Of a DNA stretch of 64,000 bases, positions 14,672 to 22,235 are shown one piece after another. Source of the DNA: Longimicrobiales bacterium (lineage in GTDB: Bacteria > Gemmatimonadota > Gemmatimonadetes > Longimicrobiales > Gaopeijiaceae). Within the stretch, counting starts at the first letter, position 1. Each line of letters starts with the position of its first letter. Both the position numbers and the translations under genes were made by a program. Location: contig OZ252251.1 of the NCBI GenBank assembly GCA_965249725.1, forward strand, positions 128,001 to 192,000. Direction: 5' to 3'. The notes beneath the pieces are model-generated. The model was not told the DNA's origin, searched no databases, and was given only the letters and a program-made list of their open reading frames with translations.

Positions 14672-14785
14672 GCCTCTGGGGGTAGCGGTGCCGGTCGCTC
14701 GCACCAAGCCGAGGGATCCGGAAGGCCTCGGTTGCGTACCAAGGGCGTTCAGAGATTCTCACCCAAGAAAAGAGCCCAAGCACCG

Positions 14786-16163
14786 ATGACTTCGACACGC
14801 TCAACTCTCACGGGACGCGCGGCACTGATCTTCGCGTTCACCGCGATGCTCCCCGCCGGATCCGCAAGCGCCCAGCAGCCCCTCGGTGCCTCCCCCGTGG
14901 TGGACGACCTCCCGGGCATGGGCCGCGCCGTCGACCTGGTGGAGACACGCGCCCGGAGAGAGGCGCTCGTCGCTCGTACCGGTGCGGGCGTGATCGCCAT
15001 TCCAGCGGGGCGGAGCCGCGACCTCGAGTTGGAGGTGCTGCAGGACAACAACTTCAGGCAGGACGACTACTTCTTCTACCTCACTGGCCTCGAGTCGCCC
15101 GACGCCTGGCTCGTCATGCCCGTTGAGCCGTCGGGTGCCGCCCAGAGCCATCTCTTTCTGCCCGACCGAGATCCGGCCACCGAACAGTGGACCGGCAAGA
15201 AGCTCGGTCCCGGGGATCGGGCCAAGGAACTGGCCGGCGTGCTTCACGTCCACTCCCTGAGTGATCTCGACGCCGAACTGCAGCGGATGCGCCGGGCCAC
15301 GCCGGGGCCGCTCTTCACCACACTCTATGCCGCGAACGCCGAAAACGAGCGGATCGAGGGCTGGGTCGAGTCGGCCGTCGGAATCGATCTGCGCAACGCG
15401 GTGCCGATCCTCGACAGCCTGCGCCTGATCAAAGACGAAGCGGAGCTACGAAGGCTGCGCAGTGCGATCGACATCACGAGCGAGGCGCAGCGCAGGGCCA
15501 TGCAGTCGATCACATCAGGCATGTACGAGTACGAGATCGAAGCTCTGATCGAGCACACGTTCCGGTCGAACGGGGCGGACCGCCTGGGCTTTCCGTCAAT
15601 CATCGGGAGTGGTCCCAACAGCACCACGCTCCACTACGACACCAACCGCCGACAGACCCAGCCCGGTGACCTCGTGGTACTCGACATCGGCGCGGAGTAC
15701 GGGCAGTACTCGGCCGACGTCACCAGAACCGTTCCAGTCGACGGGCGCTACACCGAGCGACAGCGTTCCATCTACGAGCTGGTCCTCGGGGCTCAGCAGG
15801 CGGCCATCGACGCCACACGCCCGGGCGTCACGATCGGTGAACTGTCTGCGCTCGCGCGAGAGTACTATCGATGCCCATAGCGGTGATCTGTGTGGTGGAC
15901 CGTCCTGCAACCGCTATTACATCCACGGCCTGTCTCACTGGCTCGGCATGAGGGTGCACGACGTCGGGGACTACACCGTTCCGCTGGCGGAGGGGATGGT
16001 CTTCACGATCGAGCCGGGGATCTACATCGAGGACGAGCAGATAGGCGTTCGCATCGAGGACGACATTCTCGTGACGGCCACGGGTGCGGAGGTGCTGTCG
16101 GCCGGTGCGCCTCGAGGCGTCGAGGAGATCGAGGCGCTGATGAGCAGGCCGCTGTTGCCTTGA
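14786..16163 (+). pseudogene. Secreted Xaa-Pro aminopeptidase (M24B), frameshifted at ~15866
   Basis: FRQDDYFFYLTG, LHY, DIGAE, ADVTRT, then [20 protein letters not shown] and RIEDD in another frame; extra T in TAC-T-ATC. May be a sequencing error. Confidence 0.85.
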
Positions 16164-16211
16164 ACTCTGCCGGCCGACTGAAAGCCTGACCCCGAGACCG
16201 AGGATGATGCG

Positions 16212-16736
16212 ATGAGTGACCCCAGATACCCCATCGGACCGTTCCAACCAGCGGGGGCCCTGACCCCAGAGGAGAGGACGGCCCATCTGCTGCACATCGA
16301 GGAGGCGCCGGCCAGGCTACGGCTGGCCGTAGAGGGGCTGAACGACGCCCAGCTCGACACGCCCTACCGTGAGGGCGGGTGGACCGTCCGTCAGGTGGTG
16401 CATCACGTGGTGGACAGCCACATCAACGCCTACATGCGTCTGCGCTGGGCCCTCACCGAGGACGGACCCACGGTCAAGCCGTACGACGAGAAGGACTGGG
16501 CCCGACTTCCCGATGCACTATCGGCGCCGGTCGAGGTCTCACTTGACATTCTGGACTCACTGCACGGGCGATGGCTGTTACTGTGGCGGGCGATGGAGGC
16601 CTCGGACTTCTCGAGAACCTGGAAGGGGCCCGACTTCGACCACCTACCCGTGGACGAGCTGCTGAGGCTCTACTCCTGGCACGGACGTCACCACGTGGCG
16701 CACATCACTTCGCTGAGGGAGGGGATGGGTTGGTAG
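16212..16736 (+). CDS. YfiT/BstA-like DinB-family thiol transferase
   Basis: RYPIG, YREGGWTVRQVVHH, WHGRHH. Confidence 0.88.
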   Translation: MSDPRYPIGPFQPAGALTPEERTAHLLHIEEAPARLRLAVEGLNDAQLDTPYREGGWTVRQVVHHVVDSHINAYMRLRWALTEDGPTVKPYDEKDWARLPDALSAPVEVSLDILDSLHGRWLLLWRAMEASDFSRTWKGPDFDHLPVDELLRLYSWHGRHHVAHITSLREGMGW

Positions 16737-16806
16737 GGGGGTCGCTCGTGGGGCTTTCGCGGAACACCGCCTCTTCCTCGATCGACTTGCCCCTTCCTGC
16801 GAGCTG

Positions 16807-18216
16807 CTAGAAGGCCCCTGGAACACGCACCCCATGGGGTCTGGCATACACTTTTCTTGGCAATAGCCGGGGCGGGCTAGGGATGTCCACCAGCGTGTCC
16901 GCGGAAGCAACCTGCTCCCGACCAACGGCAGCCGCATGGTCCTCCAGCAAGGAGGACCGAGTGACGACCGCTACGATCGATTGGTCAAATTGCACCCCCG
17001 CAAACTCGGCTAGCTGTTCTCGCACCATGGGAATCGACAATGCCTTCCGATACGACCGGTCCGAGAGCATCGCGTCGATAGCATCCGAGACCTTGATGAT
17101 GCGCCCACCGATGGGGATTCGATCACCGGAAACGCCGTCGGGGTAGCCTTGGCCATCGACACGCTCGTGATGGTGTCTCACCGCGCCCAAGACCTCCTCT
17201 GGGAACGACGAAAAGGACTCGAGCAATTCAACACCGCGTGCGACGTGTGACTCGATAACAGCCCGTTCGGCTGGGGTGAGAGCCCCTGTCTTCTTCAGGA
17301 TCTCATTGTAGATCAAGTCGATCTTGCCGATGTCGTGAAGTAGTGCAGCCGTCTCAATGAGCTTCACTCGACCGGGAGAAAGCGTCAAATCCTCGGCAAT
17401 GCGCCTGGAGAGATCTGCCACCCTCTGCGAGTGCCCGGATGTATAAGGATCGCGTACCTCAATCGCCTTCACTAATGCCTTGAGAAGATTCGTGTTGGCT
17501 TCCTGCAGTTGGAAAGTGGTCAGGTAACCCCGGCGAATGAACAAGAGCGGCAGGAGGACCAGCAGGAAGCCCGGGACCCCGTAGTCGACATAGAGGAATG
17601 CGATCAAGAGGGACATCGGACTAACGAGCAAATCATACAGGAGATTGGTTCCGGACTTCCCAACCAGCAGTCTCCAAGCCTTCCTAAACGGAATCCCCTG
17701 GCTAACAGCGATCGCGCCCGAGACCGAGCCCTGATTGATCAGCAGAAACGCAAAACCGAAAGCGATCAAGGGTCCGAACTGGAAGGTGAACCCCTCACCC
17801 GCGAGTTCGGGAGCCTGCGGTAGTCCCCCAACCTGACTAAACACAAAGCCAGCAAGAACGGTTGAAAGAGTGAACTGACCAATGTTGAAGACGGTCTTGA
17901 TTGGCTCGGTTCGCCGGATGATCAGTTCACCGAACACGCCCGTGGTCACATGGAGTGCCAGGGCCGGCACCGGCCCAAACAGGAGCACGCATGCCAGGAG
18001 CGGAAGGAAGGTAATTGAAGAACTACCCGAATTCCCCCCGACCTTGATAGTAAGAGAGAGCGACTCCGACAGCAGCCCAAGAGTTATGAGCGCCAGAAGT
18101 CCCAACCACGCTTCCGGTGGAAGCGTGGTAAGAGAACTCCAGTCTGCCAACGGCAGTGCGCACAGGGATAGGACAACCACTACCCCGACGTACACGCGTA
18201 TGGGTCCTGTGTCCAT
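16807..18216 (-). CDS. Multi-TM membrane HD-GYP cyclic-dinucleotide phosphodiesterase
   Basis: About seven N-terminal TM segments; RDPYTSGHS, LLHDIGK, HHERVDGQGYPDG, DAIDAM. Confidence 0.9.
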   Translation of the reverse strand: MDTGPIRVYVGVVVVLSLCALPLADWSSLTTLPPEAWLGLLALITLGLLSESLSLTIKVGGNSGSSSITFLPLLACVLLFGPVPALALHVTTGVFGELIIRRTEPIKTVFNIGQFTLSTVLAGFVFSQVGGLPQAPELAGEGFTFQFGPLIAFGFAFLLINQGSVSGAIAVSQGIPFRKAWRLLVGKSGTNLLYDLLVSPMSLLIAFLYVDYGVPGFLLVLLPLLFIRRGYLTTFQLQEANTNLLKALVKAIEVRDPYTSGHSQRVADLSRRIAEDLTLSPGRVKLIETAALLHDIGKIDLIYNEILKKTGALTPAERAVIESHVARGVELLESFSSFPEEVLGAVRHHHERVDGQGYPDGVSGDRIPIGGRIIKVSDAIDAMLSDRSYRKALSIPMVREQLAEFAGVQFDQSIVAVVTRSSLLEDHAAAVGREQVASADTLVDIPSPPRLLPRKVYARPHGVRVPGAF

Positions 18217-18243
18217 TCACAAGACCCCCCTCGACCATACCGT

Positions 18244-18330
18244 TTACCAACCAGCAATCCCGCTGTTGATCAACGCCATCACCGTACCGAAAAAATCGAA
18301 CAGAGAGTCAAACAAGCCAACGACGAGCAC
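18244..18330 (-). CDS. Unannotated 28-aa hydrophobic peptide MLVVGLFDSLFDFFGTVMALINSGIAGW
   Basis: GTG start preceded by AAAGGAGGTGA (18336-18346); stop 27 nt before the HD-GYP ATG. Confidence 0.65.
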   Translation of the reverse strand: MLVVGLFDSLFDFFGTVMALINSGIAGW

Positions 18331-18464
18331 ATGCGTCACCTCCTTTCAGGGTGGTGTCAGCTTCCTCCGCTCAGGAAGCCGCAGCGCTCCGCTCTTGCCT
18401 CTCCGCTTCGCTCTTGGCCGGTCGAGGGGGTCTCCCTTTTGTGTTGTTCCGCTCCGGGTCCGCT
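18331..18464 (-). promoter_or_regulatory. Structured purine-rich intercistronic leader with five AGCGGA repeats and an anti-RBS segment
   Basis: AGCGGA x5; hairpin GGCTTCCT-GAGCGG-AGGAAGCT; AGACCCCCTCGACC is complementary to the HD-GYP RBS region. Confidence 0.6.
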
Positions 18465-19148
18465 TTAGACTCTGCCTCGGACCCATCGGTCCGTGGCCTG
18501 CAGCGTTCCCAATATTACAGCCTTATCGGCTGTATCTTCGACGGCCGCCGCCCCCGCGAGGGCGGTTACCGACCGTCCATGAATCGCATGTATGGCGACC
18601 AACGCGAACTGCGAGTCGACCGCCTCCACCAACTTTACGCCGTCGACGGATAGTGCCACCTCGCCCTCTCCCAAGAGGGGTGCGATGGCACCTTCGATCG
18701 CTTTCACCGCCGCCGAAGCAGTCGTTTCTAGTCTTGCACGGATCAGGTCAGCTCCGCTGGCCTCACCCTCAAAGCGCTCTCCGCGCCATTCCACCGTCAC
18801 CCGGATTCGCACTCGGTGAGACCGCTCGGTCTCGACCTGGTGGCTGATGAAGAGGATCCGGTCCTCCATGGTCAGCCGCGCCGGATGATCCAATACCTTT
18901 GCTTCGCTAGCCGCGTCCTCGTCCGTCGTCTCCGCCACCGACACCTTGCGGTGGTCGATCTTCATGCCGAAGTGGGCCAACAAGGCCGATTCGACATTCC
19001 GCACCGACTGCTTCGGCGACAGGTCTCCCATAGTGAGGAGATGGATCTCGTCGATCTCCCCTCCGGGACGCGCCACCACGCGTGCCGACACGACTCCCCG
19101 CAGGGAGTTCAGCAGAGCCTCGGCCTCCTCGATACTCCATTCCCTCAT
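18465..19148 (-). CDS. Conserved two-domain hypothetical protein
   Basis: Globular ORF from MREWSIEEAE; N-domain EIHLL...PKQSVRNVES...IDHRKVSVA; C-domain resembles the LeuA regulatory fold by eye. Confidence 0.75.
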   Translation of the reverse strand: MREWSIEEAEALLNSLRGVVSARVVARPGGEIDEIHLLTMGDLSPKQSVRNVESALLAHFGMKIDHRKVSVAETTDEDAASEAKVLDHPARLTMEDRILFISHQVETERSHRVRIRVTVEWRGERFEGEASGADLIRARLETTASAAVKAIEGAIAPLLGEGEVALSVDGVKLVEAVDSQFALVAIHAIHGRSVTALAGAAAVEDTADKAVILGTLQATDRWVRGRV

Positions 19149-19657
19149 GGGTGGAGTAGGGCTCTTCTCCGCGTTCAATTGCGGAGCCGACAGGGGTATG
19201 AACAGCCCCACCGGGTCGTGCCCCCAGACCCGTTCCCAACCGGGTCGACTCGATCTAGATCACCGGCCGAAGCACGGCTTTTCAAATCTATGTTGCTCCC
19301 TCGCATCATTCCCCGATGTTGGCGATCCGTGAGCGACGGCAATTCTGGCCCAACCACGGTGACATCAGTGAGAGGACAAGTCATATGTTTACGAAACTCC
19401 GGCACTATGTGTCCAGACGTCACCGCTTGTCAAGAACAGCATAGGGCGGGCCGTATATCGGCGACAGAGGAAGCGTTTTCTTATCGGTACGGCGGAGTGG
19501 AATAATGGTAAAAAAATGCAACAAGCAAACATCCGTGTCCGGAGACGGGAGGAGCCACCGGAAATCGCCATGCTGGACACACGAGGACGGTCGGTTTATA
19601 CACCAGTCAACCGTCGCAGTTGAGACGGCCCAACCCTCTGGACAGGACCCGGAACTC

Positions 19658-20377
19658 ATGGCGAGACGCGGCGGCCTTGCTGTAACCGTCCTTGCTTTCT
19701 CCTTCTTTCTCGGCGGCTGTGCATCGAGGCAGTCCATCCCCCAAGTTACGAGAGTCACAGAGCTTCCGACGATTACGAAGACCGGCGTGCAACCGGGCGA
19801 CCAAGTCGCTATCACGTTCTACACGGCAGCCGGCAGCGAACTGTCCGAGGTGTCCGGCGAGCGCACGGTCGATGCCAACGGGGAGGTCTTCCTACCGTTC
19901 TTGGGGACCGTGAGCGTCCTCGGGCTCGACTCTCAGACCATTCGCGAGATGCTGGAAGATCGCTACGGAACACTCTACTCTGATCCGGTCGTCGAAGTCT
20001 CGACGAACATCCATGTCAACGTCACGGGAGCCGTCGGTCGACCTGGTCGTTACTTCCTGCCTCCATCCGCGACCTTGGTCGACGCTCTCGCCCTCGCTGG
20101 GGGCTCAGGCTCCGACATCGACGTCGCGGTGCAGGGGGGAGCCGCTGACCCGGCCAACGTACGTCTGGTAAGGGAAGGCGTATCGACAATCATCGATATG
20201 CGGCCCTTGGAGATTCGGCCAGTGGTCCTCGACCTTCGTGTGCAGTCCGGCGACTGGCTCCACATACCCAGAGCCGTCCGGTCCGAGCGGCGTGACGACA
20301 TCAGCTTCTACGGCAGCATCCTGAGCACGCTCCTGACCTTCGTTTCGCTCATCGTCCTCGTCGGGCAGAACAAGTAG
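19658..20377 (+). CDS. Polysaccharide export family lipoprotein (Poly_export + SLBB)
   Basis: Lipobox LGGC, QPGDQV, VDANGEVFLPFLG, VTGAVGRPG, LVDALALAGG. Confidence 0.85.
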   Translation: MARRGGLAVTVLAFSFFLGGCASRQSIPQVTRVTELPTITKTGVQPGDQVAITFYTAAGSELSEVSGERTVDANGEVFLPFLGTVSVLGLDSQTIREMLEDRYGTLYSDPVVEVSTNIHVNVTGAVGRPGRYFLPPSATLVDALALAGGSGSDIDVAVQGGAADPANVRLVREGVSTIIDMRPLEIRPVVLDLRVQSGDWLHIPRAVRSERRDDISFYGSILSTLLTFVSLIVLVGQNK

Positions 20378-20554
20378 CCGATCAATCCACATGCGCCCCG
20401 CGGAGGGCCCCACGGTCCAGGTGGGCGGCTCCGACACCTACGAGGCTCGATGCCGAAAATGTCACGAGGTGCCGCGGCGTCGGTGGCGCCTTGACACCCC
20501 CCTCGAGGCTCTAGAGTTTTTTGGTTCACTCTGCCGCAAGTCGGCATGAGTCAA

Positions 20555-20627
20555 TCCCGCGTAGCTCAGTTGGTAGAGCAGTCGGCTGTTAACCGACTTG
20601 TCGCTGGTTCGAGTCCAGCCGCGGGAG
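20555..20627 (+). tRNA. tRNA-Asn(GTT), CCA not encoded
   Basis: Full cloverleaf: TCCCGCG/CGCGGGA acceptor stem, GTCGG-CTGTTAA-CCGAC anticodon arm, TTCGAGT T-loop; TTGACA at 20491 upstream. Confidence 0.97.
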
Positions 20628-20641
20628 TTCAAGCACCACCT

Positions 20642-20689
20642 TCTCAAGCTCCGTCTCAGGCTCCGTGTCAGGCTCCGTGTCAGGCTCCG
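20642..20689. repeat. 12-bp tandem repeat x4 downstream of the tRNA
   Basis: tctcaggctccg / tgtcaggctccg units. Confidence 0.9.
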
Positions 20690-20718
20690 TCGTTCGTTAT
20701 GGGCGACGGAGCTTCTTC
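20684..20718 (+). terminator. Intrinsic terminator after tRNA-Asn
   Basis: GCTCCGTCGTTC-GTTAT-GGGCGACGGAGC followed by TTCTTC. Confidence 0.7.
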
Positions 20719-20882
20719 GTCCCGGCAGACCCGCCCAGGCCCCCGGGGCTGACCCCGATTCGGTGTTCGGCTAGTTTTTAGAGCTTGAGCATAGGCCACC
20801 TCGTTCGCGGAAATGTCCTTGGGGGCGAACGAAGTGAGATGTAGATTAGCTGCCACCAGAGTTGCTCGCATGGAGGGCTCAC

Positions 20883-22235
20883 ATGGGTGAAGACAAGCCT
20901 GAGACCACACGGCAGGGCGGGATGTTTACCGACGAGACCGGTAGCCAGCTCCCGCTCGCCATGCAGTACGACTACACGAATTTCTATTTCGGGTCGGGCG
21001 ACGATGCCTTCGGCATGCTCGACCCGTTCGACGAGTGGTACAAGGACGCGAAGCCGGCCGGGTACTACCTATACGGGCTCCCCATGCAGGGCGCGCCGAC
21101 CACGCGCGTGGACATCCGCAACACGAAGACGGATGAGATCCACAGGGGGCTACTGAACTTCGCCTCCTATAACTACCTCGGTCTCTCGTATCGTCCGGAG
21201 GTCAAGGAAGCCGTGATCGCGGCGACCCACCTCTATGGCAACGGTGCGTCAGGCTCACCCATCCTGAGCGGCTCGCTGGAGGTCCACCACGAGTTGGCCG
21301 AGCGGCTGGCGGCCTTCAAGGGCAAGGAAGCGGTACTTCTCTTCCCGACCGGCTACAGTGTGAACGTGGGGGTCATCGCGGGGCTCATGCGCTCGGGCGA
21401 CCTCATCGTGGCCGACCAGTACGCCCACGCCAGCCTCGTGGACGGCATGATCCTGTCCAAGGCCACGAGTCGCTTCTTCCGCCACAACAAGGTCGAGGAC
21501 CTGGAGCGCAAGCTGAAGCGCTACGACGGCAAGAAGCTGGTTCTGATCGAAGGCGTGTACTCGATGGACGGCGATTTGGCCGTGGTTCCGGAGATCGTCG
21601 AAGTATGCCAGCGCTACGGCGCCCGCATCTTGATCGACGAGGCCCACTCGACGTTCATCTACGGCGAGAACGGACGCGGCGTCGCCGAGTCCTCGGGTTT
21701 CGAGGACGAGATCGACATTCATGTGGGGACCTTCTCCAAGAGCCTGGGAGGCCAGGGCGGCTTCGTGGCCGGTTCCAAGAAGCTGATCAACTACCTGCGA
21801 GGTTTCTCGAGGTCGCGCTTCTTCTCTTGCGGGCTCTCGCCCGTGGTGGCCGCAGGCATTCTCAAGGCGCTGGATCTCTTCGAGGCCGAGCCGGAGCTGC
21901 GCACTCAGCTGTGGGAGAACGTGGACTTCATGCAGAAGAGCCTCCGCGAGGCCGGCATCTCCGTGGGCGACTCCGAGTGTCAGGTCATTCCCATCATGGT
22001 GCAGGACGACGCCCGCGTCTTCGAGATCGGTGAGGCATTGATGCAAGAGGGCGTCTACCTAAACCCGGTCAAGTATCCCGCAGTCCCCAAACACAAATCA
22101 CGGTTCCGCATGTCCATTTCCGCGGCTCACTCGAAAGAGGAGCTCGAAGAGGGCGTCCGGATCATCACCAGCGTCTTGCAAAGGTACGGCATATGTCCGA
22201 AGGCCGAGGACGGTATTACTTCGACAACGGGCTGA
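20883..22235 (+). CDS. PLP-dependent alpha-oxoamine synthase, serine palmitoyltransferase-like
   Basis: SYNYLGL, DQYAHASL, EGVYSMDGD, DEAHS, GTFSKSLG. Confidence 0.8.
   Translation: MGEDKPETTRQGGMFTDETGSQLPLAMQYDYTNFYFGSGDDAFGMLDPFDEWYKDAKPAGYYLYGLPMQGAPTTRVDIRNTKTDEIHRGLLNFASYNYLGLSYRPEVKEAVIAATHLYGNGASGSPILSGSLEVHHELAERLAAFKGKEAVLLFPTGYSVNVGVIAGLMRSGDLIVADQYAHASLVDGMILSKATSRFFRHNKVEDLERKLKRYDGKKLVLIEGVYSMDGDLAVVPEIVEVCQRYGARILIDEAHSTFIYGENGRGVAESSGFEDEIDIHVGTFSKSLGGQGGFVAGSKKLINYLRGFSRSRFFSCGLSPVVAAGILKALDLFEAEPELRTQLWENVDFMQKSLREAGISVGDSECQVIPIMVQDDARVFEIGEALMQEGVYLNPVKYPAVPKHKSRFRMSISAAHSKEELEEGVRIITSVLQRYGICPKAEDGITSTTG

Follow-up and report, generated by a model that had tools for sequence, protein, structure and literature searches.

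A conserved Gemmatimonadota operon with a structured leader RNA, a tryptophan-ending micro-gene and a MASE9-HD-GYP gene: a probable control module for a second-messenger enzyme

When a ribosome occupies the leader open reading frame (ORF) of ermC, cat or cmlA, the helix-held Shine-Dalgarno sequence (SD) of the next gene is freed. There, the strand that sequesters the SD is part of the leader ORF or follows it, and induction requires drug-dependent stalling. A second type of control is represented by MgrB-PhoQ, SafA-PhoQ, AcrZ-AcrB and KdpF, in which small membrane proteins modulate sensors and pumps, and a third by HutP and PyrR, which are encoded first in their own operons and act on a downstream leader. 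Membrane-bound HD-GYP phosphodiesterases with a MASE domain are common; the signals they sense and their control are largely unknown, and the Gemmatimonadota, abundant soil bacteria, have few studied regulatory systems. The locus analysed here lies in a stretch of 64,000 nucleotides (nt) from a Longimicrobiales bacterium of this phylum (contig OZ252251.1, positions 128,001 to 192,000), which is called the window. It consists of a gene for a hypothetical protein of 227 amino acids (aa), named hyp227, a leader RNA with AGCGGA repeats, a small ORF and a gene for an HD-GYP protein with a MASE9 domain. The closest documented mechanism, according to those parts of the source that were consulted, is that of mgtQ, an 8-codon ORF between mgtC and mgtB of Salmonella whose translation frees the sequestered ribosome-binding site of mgtB (PMC8092293).

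Comparison of related loci points to a conserved Gemmatimonadota operon that is predicted to comprise hyp227, the structured leader, a micro-gene of 20-28 codons ending in Trp, and the MASE9-HD-GYP gene. This arrangement is probably an undescribed control module for a second-messenger enzyme. As in mgtQ, the gate on a downstream ribosome-binding site would be a small ORF located between genes of the same operon. Whereas mgtQ, as described in the same excerpts, uses ribosome-destabilising acidic codons and local alternative stem-loops, the module has a long-range helix round the whole leader and the ORF. Compared to the 8 codons of mgtQ, its ORF has 20-28 codons, codes for a hydrophobic, W-ending peptide with signs of peptide-level selection, and precedes a gene for a predicted cyclic di-GMP (c-di-GMP) phosphodiesterase. 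In contrast to the ermC, cat and cmlA leaders, the partner strand of the helix is located upstream of the ORF; moreover, the module always includes a third gene and a repeat-bearing RNA, unlike mgtQ and these leaders. With MgrB, SafA, AcrZ and KdpF the module shares a short peptide of conserved hydrophobicity that is encoded beside, or co-regulated with, a membrane signalling protein. It differs from them in that synthesis of the peptide would be tied to that of the enzyme by an RNA helix, and in that binding is a weak prediction from co-folding. In the consulted portions of the literature on MASE9, on HD-GYP leader peptides and small membrane proteins, and on Gemmatimonadetes RNA motifs, no description of the module was found.

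The product of the last gene is a predicted membrane-bound c-di-GMP phosphodiesterase of the HD-GYP type. It is matched by the Pfam profiles HD_5 (E 6.3e-31, 107.8 bits, cut-off 27.2), HD (2.1e-19, 70.3 bits, cut-off 22) and, in residues 56-228, MASE9 (PF20972; 3.5e-08, 34.1 bits, cut-off 24.3). The motifs HDIGK and HHERVDGQGYP, which we take to be the HD dyad and the HHE...GYP motif of HD-GYP phosphodiesterases, are legible in its translation. The same architecture is found in TM1467 from Thermotoga maritima and HdgA from Streptomyces venezuelae, for which the consulted part of the source mentions no upstream micro-gene, leader RNA or accessory protein (bioRxiv 10.1101/2021.11.05.467447).

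A homologue of hyp227 occurs in 31 of 41 related genomes, if the window's genome itself and the unpublished G025, where the match is weak, are counted. Of the first 20 loci, six belonged to close relatives with enough downstream sequence, and in all six a related small ORF and then an HD-GYP gene followed; in another four, the sequence broke off within the small ORF. Scanning species-representative genomes gave 80 loci, 68 of which have an HD-GYP homologue downstream of the hyp227 gene. Eleven of the other 12 are on contigs that stop 162-277 nt after the hyp227 gene, and the last one (L028) has a transposase-like ORF. The named loci among the 80 come from metagenome-assembled genomes of Gemmatimonadota type, with the exception of three otherwise-labelled contigs and two entries named 'uncultured bacterium'. 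The three contigs (L042, L047 and L099) are labelled Phycisphaerales, Bacillota and Isosphaeraceae, respectively. Their modules are closely like Gemmatimonadota copies, the peptide of L042 being identical to those of L052 and L055, and they are therefore probably cases of mis-binning rather than of transfer. A few loci are disrupted or enlarged: the transposase-like ORF of L028, read by eye, follows a shortened hyp227 gene, in L073 an integrase gene of the rve family separates the small ORF from what is left of the HD-GYP gene, and L098 has an extra ORF.

The linkage was also seen from the RNA and from the enzyme. A covariance model of the 5' two-thirds of the leader (R1), which lacks the full helix P1 described below, had a single match in the window's genome (E 1.0e-23). 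It matched 17 of 151 genomes of the phylum, once each and in six families. A hyp227 homologue was located upstream of all 17 matches (identity 35-56%; 100% at the window's own locus), and an HD-GYP gene downstream of 14, the other three being at contig ends. A search with the MASE9 region found a match in 58 of the same genomes, including the unpublished G096. At the 28 best-scoring MASE9 matches in other genomes (L120-L147), a hyp227 homologue was invariably present upstream. With filters off, R1 matched just upstream of the gene in 24 of these loci (E <= 0.023) and weakly in three (E 0.27-0.5); there was no match in L126. The distance from the end of hyp227 to the estimated HD-GYP start was 192-473 nt in 16 loci and about 0.9-1.2 kb in 12, the automatic start-codon picks being unreliable in several of them. 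In L110, L113 and L117 an extra gene stands between the hyp227 gene and the leader; that of L113 codes for HTH_17 and receiver domains. None of five genomes without the hyp227 gene, two of them from the window's own genus, had a MASE9 match. Given the linkage observed from both genes and this joint absence, the module appears, on comparative grounds, to be inherited and lost as a unit. The order of hypothetical gene, small W-ending ORF and membrane HD-GYP gene, which an earlier sequence-only reading of the window had described, was confirmed for the Gemmatimonadota by these counts. The features that it had named as checks in homologous loci, namely a small ORF, repeat arrays, anti-RBS covariation and a following HD-GYP gene, were likewise found.

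Leaders were collected from 90 loci, namely the 80 of the species-representative scan and 10 of the first 20. Left out were L006, L009 and L010, where contigs end, and the distant homologue loci L014-L020, of which L014-L016, L019 and L020 have no HD-GYP gene in the 1.5-kb flank and L017 and L018 are short contigs. The 90 loci yielded 69 distinct complete leaders, to which the counts below refer. Another 14 ended before the stop codon of the small ORF, four were duplicates, one was too short, and in L028 and L098 a small ORF was not recognisable. The leader contains two AGCGGA motifs, the 5' strand of a helix P1, GAGCGRA repeats, a hairpin P2 and the SD of the small ORF. Applied to the 69-leader alignment (A2), RNAalifold predicted P1 and P2 unaided. 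P1 is a long-range helix of 14-19 base pairs (bp), in which C-rich sequence from the 5' edge of the leader pairs with the G-rich SD of the HD-GYP gene. It spans about 190-200 nt and encloses the whole leader and the small ORF. In the window, CCCCCUCGACCG (18430-18419) pairs with UGGUCGAGGGGG (18237-18226), and this pairing is present in the minimum free energy (MFE) fold of 18445-18205.

Both helices are supported by covariation. The test used 24 named pairs (14 from P1, 10 from P2) in the 69 leaders, that is 1653 cells, and controls in which the 3' partner was slid by 1-3 columns. Standard pairs were found in 90.4% of the cells, compared to 37.8-51.2% in the slid controls. Cells in which both partners had changed numbered 215, as against 24-49, and 19 of the 24 pairs showed such changes. 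None of 500 shuffles matched the observed value on any of five measures. Taken separately, P1 is paired in 92.1% of its cells with 11 of 14 pairs changed on both sides, and P2 in 88.1% with 8 of 10 pairs so changed. Cognate P1 strands form duplexes of -34.1 +/- 3.4 kcal/mol (-33.8 kcal/mol in the window); with strands from other loci the energy is -27.4 +/- 5.3, and with a shuffled 3' strand -15.5 +/- 4.2 kcal/mol. The cognate partner ranked within the top 5 of 69 in 34 cases. Deep lineages retain the pairing with other sequences (CCCCCAAUCUCU/AGAGAUUGGGGG, CCCCGGGUUGCC/GGCAACCUGGGG and CUGACACCCG/CGGGUGUCAG). The conserved helix thus holds the SD of a downstream gene, as in unmasking of the mgtQ or ermC type. 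This SD, GAGGGGGG, is located 8 nt before the ATG in the window, and in the 69 leaders mostly 8-13 nt separate the end of the G-run from the first start-like codon that follows. As far as these comparisons go, the spacer is a conserved structured RNA. The sequence-only reading had treated it as an RNA element able to pair with the ribosome-binding site of the HD-GYP gene and had named anti-RBS covariation as the check; both the pairing and the covariation were found.

Two alternative explanations concern the RNA alone. The leader could itself sense temperature or a metabolite, as an RNA thermometer or a riboswitch does, and open the SD regions without any need for a functional peptide. The MFE fold of 18445-18205 (-103.1 kcal/mol) is indeed far more stable than shuffled sequences (z = -4.26; 0 of 200 as stable), both SDs lie within structure, and the invariant unpaired purine-rich elements resemble those often found in ligand pockets. 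However, a helix of about -34 kcal/mol such as P1 is far too stable to act as a thermometer, a junction or pseudoknot with covariation was not found beyond P1 and P2, and the coding signature described below argues that the ORF matters as a protein. In addition, an Rfam covariance search of 16000-21000 at E <= 1 identified only a tRNA and left the leader unmatched. A direct sensor is therefore quite improbable.

According to the second alternative, P1 is not a translational gate but serves the processing or stability of the RNA, for instance as a site at which RNase III cuts the polycistronic RNA into separate messages. Long duplexes of this kind are substrates cut by RNase III, and P1 is a perfect to near-perfect duplex of 14-19 bp between distant segments. 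Furthermore, GC-rich hairpins (MFE <= -12 kcal/mol) without a U-run directly follow the hyp227 gene, between its stop codon and P1, in 25 of the 69 leaders of alignment A2, the window not being among them, and suggest differential stability of the segments. What speaks against this role, to which we assign a very low probability, is that it accounts neither for the 3' strand being an SD at the correct spacing nor for the stop codon of the micro-gene abutting that strand, and that a cut inside the SD would destroy HD-GYP translation. The GC-rich hairpins themselves may be unusual terminators, stabilisers or processing sites.

The small ORF extends from GTG 18330 to the stop codon at 18246-18244 and stands behind the SD AAAGGAGGTG; a longer form of 31 codons, starting at GTG 18339, is given in the ORF listing. 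Among 35 distinct ORFs of 23 codons, pairwise differences at codon positions 1, 2 and 3 amount to 0.355, 0.17 and 0.515 per site, and in three loci the peptide is identical despite several synonymous differences. Judged by this substitution pattern, the small ORF shows the marks of a gene under purifying selection at the peptide level. A small ORF with a strong ribosome-binding site had been claimed before, and the nearly invariant SD and the coding pattern bear this out. The peptides have 20-28 residues (median 23), a GRAVY (grand average of hydropathy) of 1.22 and a net charge that is mostly -1; among 68 peptides there are 64 distinct ones. Their consensus is MFSSLFDxFGxVLxLxxxGxxxW, in which only the columns G27 and W31 are invariant. 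The terminal residue is Trp in 63 of the 69 leaders. In deep lineages the small ORFs are unrelated in sequence, yet short, hydrophobic and mostly W-ending. No Pfam or NCBIfam match was found for the small ORF at E <= 0.1. Precursors of ribosomally synthesised and post-translationally modified peptides were considered and rejected, as no modification enzymes are encoded nearby and the peptides are very short. An overlapping ORF of 17 codons with an ATG start (18332-18279, minus strand, other frame; MCSSLACL...) is not conserved and was taken as a chance occurrence.

A short hydrophobic peptide encoded in a highly structured mRNA with long-range pairing is typical of hok- and AapA-type loci. One might therefore suspect a type I toxin-like peptide whose mRNA is silenced by fold-back and which is functionally unrelated to the HD-GYP gene. 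This is hardly credible, because there is one copy per genome, because the synteny with the same two genes is strict across families of the phylum and the genes are lost together, and because P1 sequesters the SD of the downstream gene and not the peptide's own, which is strong and at most lightly masked.

The position of the stop codon relates the small ORF to the helix. The distance from the stop to the 3' strand of P1 is 4 nt in the window, with a median of 3 nt and a range of 0-13 nt in the 69 leaders, so that a ribosome at the stop must enter the helix. This geometry and the strength of the helix are the basis of a coupling model. With P1 closed, the start site of the HD-GYP gene would be inaccessible. 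Once a ribosome had translated the micro-gene as far as the stop, it would enter P1 and melt it, and the HD-GYP protein would be made only in step with the peptide, i.e. by translational coupling through unmasking. If translation is coupled in this way, the real control point would be initiation on the micro-gene, set by the leader repeats, hairpin P2 and the strong SD. That HD-GYP translation depends on ribosomes finishing the small ORF and opening P1 is the reading we favour, with a confidence somewhat above even. Since the ribosome-binding site is part of a covarying helix, post-transcriptional gating tied to peptide translation is the most economical interpretation. Such gating of the phosphodiesterase had been put forward in the sequence-only reading; the helix over the ribosome-binding site upholds it, and the coupling step is our inference.

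The same geometry could serve regulated ribosome arrest, as in ermC, cat or tnaC. In that case the conserved C-terminus G-x-x-x-W-stop would make the ribosome stall, at the stop codon or just ahead of it, under the influence of a signal, for instance tryptophan supply or a small molecule. Only the parked ribosome would hold P1 open, and HD-GYP synthesis would report the signal. The terminal Trp of most peptides, the invariance of G27 and W31 and of no other column, the retention of a Trp at or close to the C-terminus in deep lineages whose peptides otherwise diverge, and the abutment of stop codon and P1 3' strand all agree with arrest. In contrast, hydrophobicity is kept along the whole peptide, which an arrest peptide would not need, 6 of 69 leaders end in other residues, and all three stop codons are used (TAA 33, TAG 30, TGA 6). 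On balance, we consider arrest unlikely.

In the coupling model, the hydrophobic and selected peptide is probably also a small membrane protein, synthesised along with the enzyme, that may bind the MASE9 domain. MASE9 has been argued to bind its ligand within the membrane, and only one MASE9 protein had been studied, according to the consulted part of the work (Galperin & Chou, bioRxiv 10.1101/2021.11.05.467447). With an intramembrane ligand proposed for this domain, a peptide partner in the membrane is a reasonable assumption. As in the MgrB-PhoQ type of small membrane partner, a short, selected and hydrophobic peptide is encoded beside a sensor gene. No such small-peptide partner is described in the consulted portions of the literature on HD-GYP and MASE9 proteins. 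For co-folding, the MASE9 region (residues 1-238) and the 31-codon form of the small ORF were used, each with an alignment of 26 rows. The pair scored 0.34, compared to 0.00 for the best of three controls, which is a pass of the weak class; contact agreement was at least 58% and the pLDDT (predicted local distance difference test) of the partner at least 52. In the calibration, the mark was reached by 116 of 157 solved complexes and by 2 of 215 mismatched pairs; at scores <= 0.60, by 18 of the 157 complexes and by both mismatches. Of the earlier idea that the peptide is a partner of the transmembrane domain, selection and hydrophobicity of the peptide are thus retained, and binding itself is a prediction of the weak co-folding pass.

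Several observations weigh against the coupling model and the role of the peptide within it. A co-folding pass of the weak class is, by calibration, more often wrong than right unless the pairing is already likely. The stop codon lies 4 nt before P1 in the window and up to 13 nt before it in some relatives, and with the known footprint of the ribosome, one that terminates 4-13 nt away would open only the outer pairs of this helix of about -34 kcal/mol. In lineage L115, the P1 3' strand is not SD-like. Where it follows the hyp227 gene (25 of the 69 leaders), the GC-rich hairpin without U-run could be a site of transcript termination or processing, and co-transcription of the three genes is, like coupling, deduced from sequence. 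Finally, the most conspicuous feature of the leader, its GAGCGRA repeats, has no role in the model and does not covary with the small ORF.

The sequence-only reading had counted five AGCGGA motifs in the spacer. These are present together with one AGCGAA, which makes six AGCGRA motifs within 99 nt of the minus strand (18366-18464). In the 64-kb window, AGCGRA is not enriched (78 on both strands, shuffle mean 84.8), and about 0.06 would be expected in 99 nt of one strand from the window count; the cluster is therefore local to the leader. In relatives, GAGCGRA occurs in 3-4 evenly spaced copies with invariant AGCG.AG cores. Control of the GGA motifs by CsrA/Rsm was rejected: a search that matched 3 of 14 control genomes gave no CsrA (PF02599) for the window's genome, whose completeness is 95.8%, and many repeats are AGCGAA and thus lack GGA. 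Also rejected was a function of the repeats as an anti-small-ORF strand. The MFE fold of the window pairs them with the 5' half of the small ORF, and cognate, non-cognate and shuffled duplexes have energies of -26.8, -25.4 and -21.0 kcal/mol, respectively; however, there is no covariation on the alignment, with 67.4% of cells paired compared to 67.5% in shuffles. A hairpin of 4 bp (CNCC:GGNG) over part of the small-ORF SD is possible but weak, as 84.8% of cells are paired and a slide of -3 still gives 82.6%.

The protein encoded upstream of the repeats, hyp227, has 1040 homologues at E <= 0.001, and all named ones among the 120 listed are from Gemmatimonadota; they align from residue 3-4 onward. 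A Pfam or NCBIfam match was not found at E <= 0.1, and a search of the ESM Atlas with hyp227 gave solely unnamed Gemmatimonadota clusters. The AlphaFold model (pLDDT 89.3) has two domains joined by a disordered linker (residues 78-94). The C-terminal domain is modelled as two beta-beta-beta-alpha units, the fold of the allosteric domains of LeuA (LeuA_dimer) and citramalate synthase. It superimposes on the regulatory domain of the isoleucine-binding citramalate synthase LiCMS (3f6g_B) with Z 9.6 and a root-mean-square deviation (rmsd) of 3.0, with 109 of 115 residues aligned, and on that of LeuA with Z 7.8 (3fig_A) and a Foldseek E of 1.8e-06 (3hps_B). With 8-18% identity in the structural alignments and no Pfam or NCBIfam family, membership of the LeuA_dimer sequence family is not indicated. 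The halves of this domain resemble uS5/dsRBD-like domains at Z 6.4-6.8, where Z 6-7 is the background of the structure search. The N-terminal domain (alpha-beta-beta-alpha-beta) is similar to the C-terminal domain of CzcD, a cation diffusion facilitator (CDF) metal transporter (Z 9.0), and also to BolA-like proteins and ring-building motifs. These folds resemble ligand-binding or dimerisation domains, and modelled likenesses at 8-20% identity do not by themselves give a function.

It was tempting to regard hyp227 as a ligand-controlled RNA-binding regulator that recognises the GAGCGRA repeats and sets the translation of micro-gene and enzyme, a role that could be combined with the coupling model. 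As with HutP and PyrR, the gene of the protein would come first, ahead of an intercistronic RNA that carries short repeats at even spacing and of the regulated genes, and the modelled C-terminal domain of hyp227 resembles amino-acid-binding domains. Unlike in these systems, the output would be translation and not antitermination, and hyp227 is unrelated to both proteins in sequence and fold. At all loci examined, the gene precedes the leader (17 of 17; 28 of 28), the repeats are regular with invariant cores, the C-terminal domain has the fold of amino-acid-binding regulatory domains of citramalate and isopropylmalate synthases, and each of its halves has some resemblance to the RNA-binding uS5/dsRBD-like domains. 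Yet that resemblance is at background level, an RNA-binding family was not recognised, and in 12 of the 28 MASE9 loci the gene is about 0.9-1.2 kb away from the HD-GYP start, besides the intervening genes in L110, L113 and L117. The paralogues argue in the same direction: their loci have at most one AGCGRA per 100 nt, compared to six in the leader of the window, and their position beside kinase and receiver genes suggests signalling at the protein level. A repeat-reading regulator is accordingly a minority possibility in our view. The earlier proposal that the repeats form an RNA switch read by the upstream protein is left unsupported by the fold likenesses, by the paralogues and by the failure to recognise an RNA-binding family.

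These paralogues occur in another family of the order, in tandem, flanking a histidine kinase (HisKA and HATPase_c) or beside genes with receiver domains (L148, G034:C5:69000-84000; L150, G032:C3:57000-71000). Neither an HD-GYP gene nor an AGCGRA cluster was found at the two loci. From its neighbours, the hyp227 family looks like an accessory of signalling proteins.

The elements of the locus are listed in Table 1. Four co-oriented elements without an obvious terminator between them had been described in the sequence-only reading. All four are present on the minus strand where they had been placed, and the description could be extended by P1, P2 and the micro-gene family.

Table 1. Positions of the module elements within the window and the basis of each assignment
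Feature	Position in the window	Strand	Basis or remark
hyp227 gene (227-aa ORF)	18465..19148	minus	ORF call; first gene of the module, no named family
Intercistronic leader RNA	18331..18464, 134 nt	minus	sequence; conserved in 69 distinct leaders
P1 5' strand, C-rich anti-SD	18417..18430, extendable to 18436	minus	RNAalifold and covariation
GAGCGRA repeat block	18384..18413	minus	AGCG.AG columns invariant in alignment
Further AGCGGA copies	18448-18453, 18459-18464, and P2 loop	minus	sequence
Hairpin P2	18355..18383	minus	10 pairs, bulged A, loop UGAGCGGA
Small-ORF SD AAAGGAGGTG	18337..18346	minus	nearly invariant in leader alignments
Small ORF, 28 codons and stop	18244..18330	minus	hydrophobic peptide, C-terminal Gly-Trp
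P1 3' strand	18226..18239	minus	holds HD-GYP SD GAGGGGGG (18232-18225)
MASE9-HD-GYP gene, 469 aa	16807..18216	minus	Pfam HD_5, HD, MASE9; NCBIfam HDIG domain
Promoter-like site, tentative	19404..19433	minus	5' of hyp227 gene; 10 of 12 consensus positions

The promoter-like site is the sole sigma-70-like consensus match in 16500-19700; 0.7 +/- 0.9 matches are expected by chance, and a function is not implied. A consensus search of the minus strand did not reveal a convincing terminator between the module genes: the only match, at 18340-18319, is weak and lacks a real U-run, which agrees with the earlier description. On both strands of the region there are six terminator consensus matches, compared to 2.4 +/- 1.9 in shuffles. 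The module is flanked by a divergent gene for a Wza-like exporter (19505-20377) and a convergent gene of the DinB family (16212-16736). With neighbours in these orientations, the three module genes form a stand-alone unit.

The product of the Wza-like gene (plus strand) has Poly_export and SLBB domains. Further away, there are a tRNA (20555-20627) and a gene for a pyridoxal phosphate-dependent enzyme similar to BioF and serine palmitoyltransferase (20862-22235, plus strand). On the other side, a gene for an M24 aminopeptidase P (14732-16163, plus strand) is apparently split. AMP_N and the first part of Peptidase_M24 are encoded in ORF 14732-15880 and the remainder in another frame, in ORF 15609-16163; straight translation of 14732-16163 meets two stops, the cause being a frameshift or an assembly error. 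Among 14 other loci examined, Poly_export genes are close to the module in three, a gene for a type I phosphodiesterase/nucleotide pyrophosphatase is directly upstream of it in five, and a convergent tetratricopeptide repeat gene is downstream of it in four.

With the module come a class of RNA leaders and a family of micro-genes that Rfam, Pfam and gene calls lack. It offers three phylum-wide handles on one enzyme, namely an RNA structure expected to gate its translation, a micropeptide made along with the enzyme and possibly its membrane partner or ligand, and an always-linked accessory protein. It would also be a clear natural example of a long-range helix that ties the translation of two cistrons. 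More speculatively, and with a likelihood that we put well below even, the parts could form a self-contained circuit, in which the W-ending peptide is an intramembrane ligand or subunit of MASE9 with its synthesis tied by the helix to that of the enzyme, and in which hyp227, perhaps loaded with an amino acid, reads the GAGCGRA repeats and so determines whether peptide and enzyme are produced. If true, this circuit would control c-di-GMP turnover in a new way, and no accessory-peptide system would have been known before it for an HD-GYP or MASE domain.

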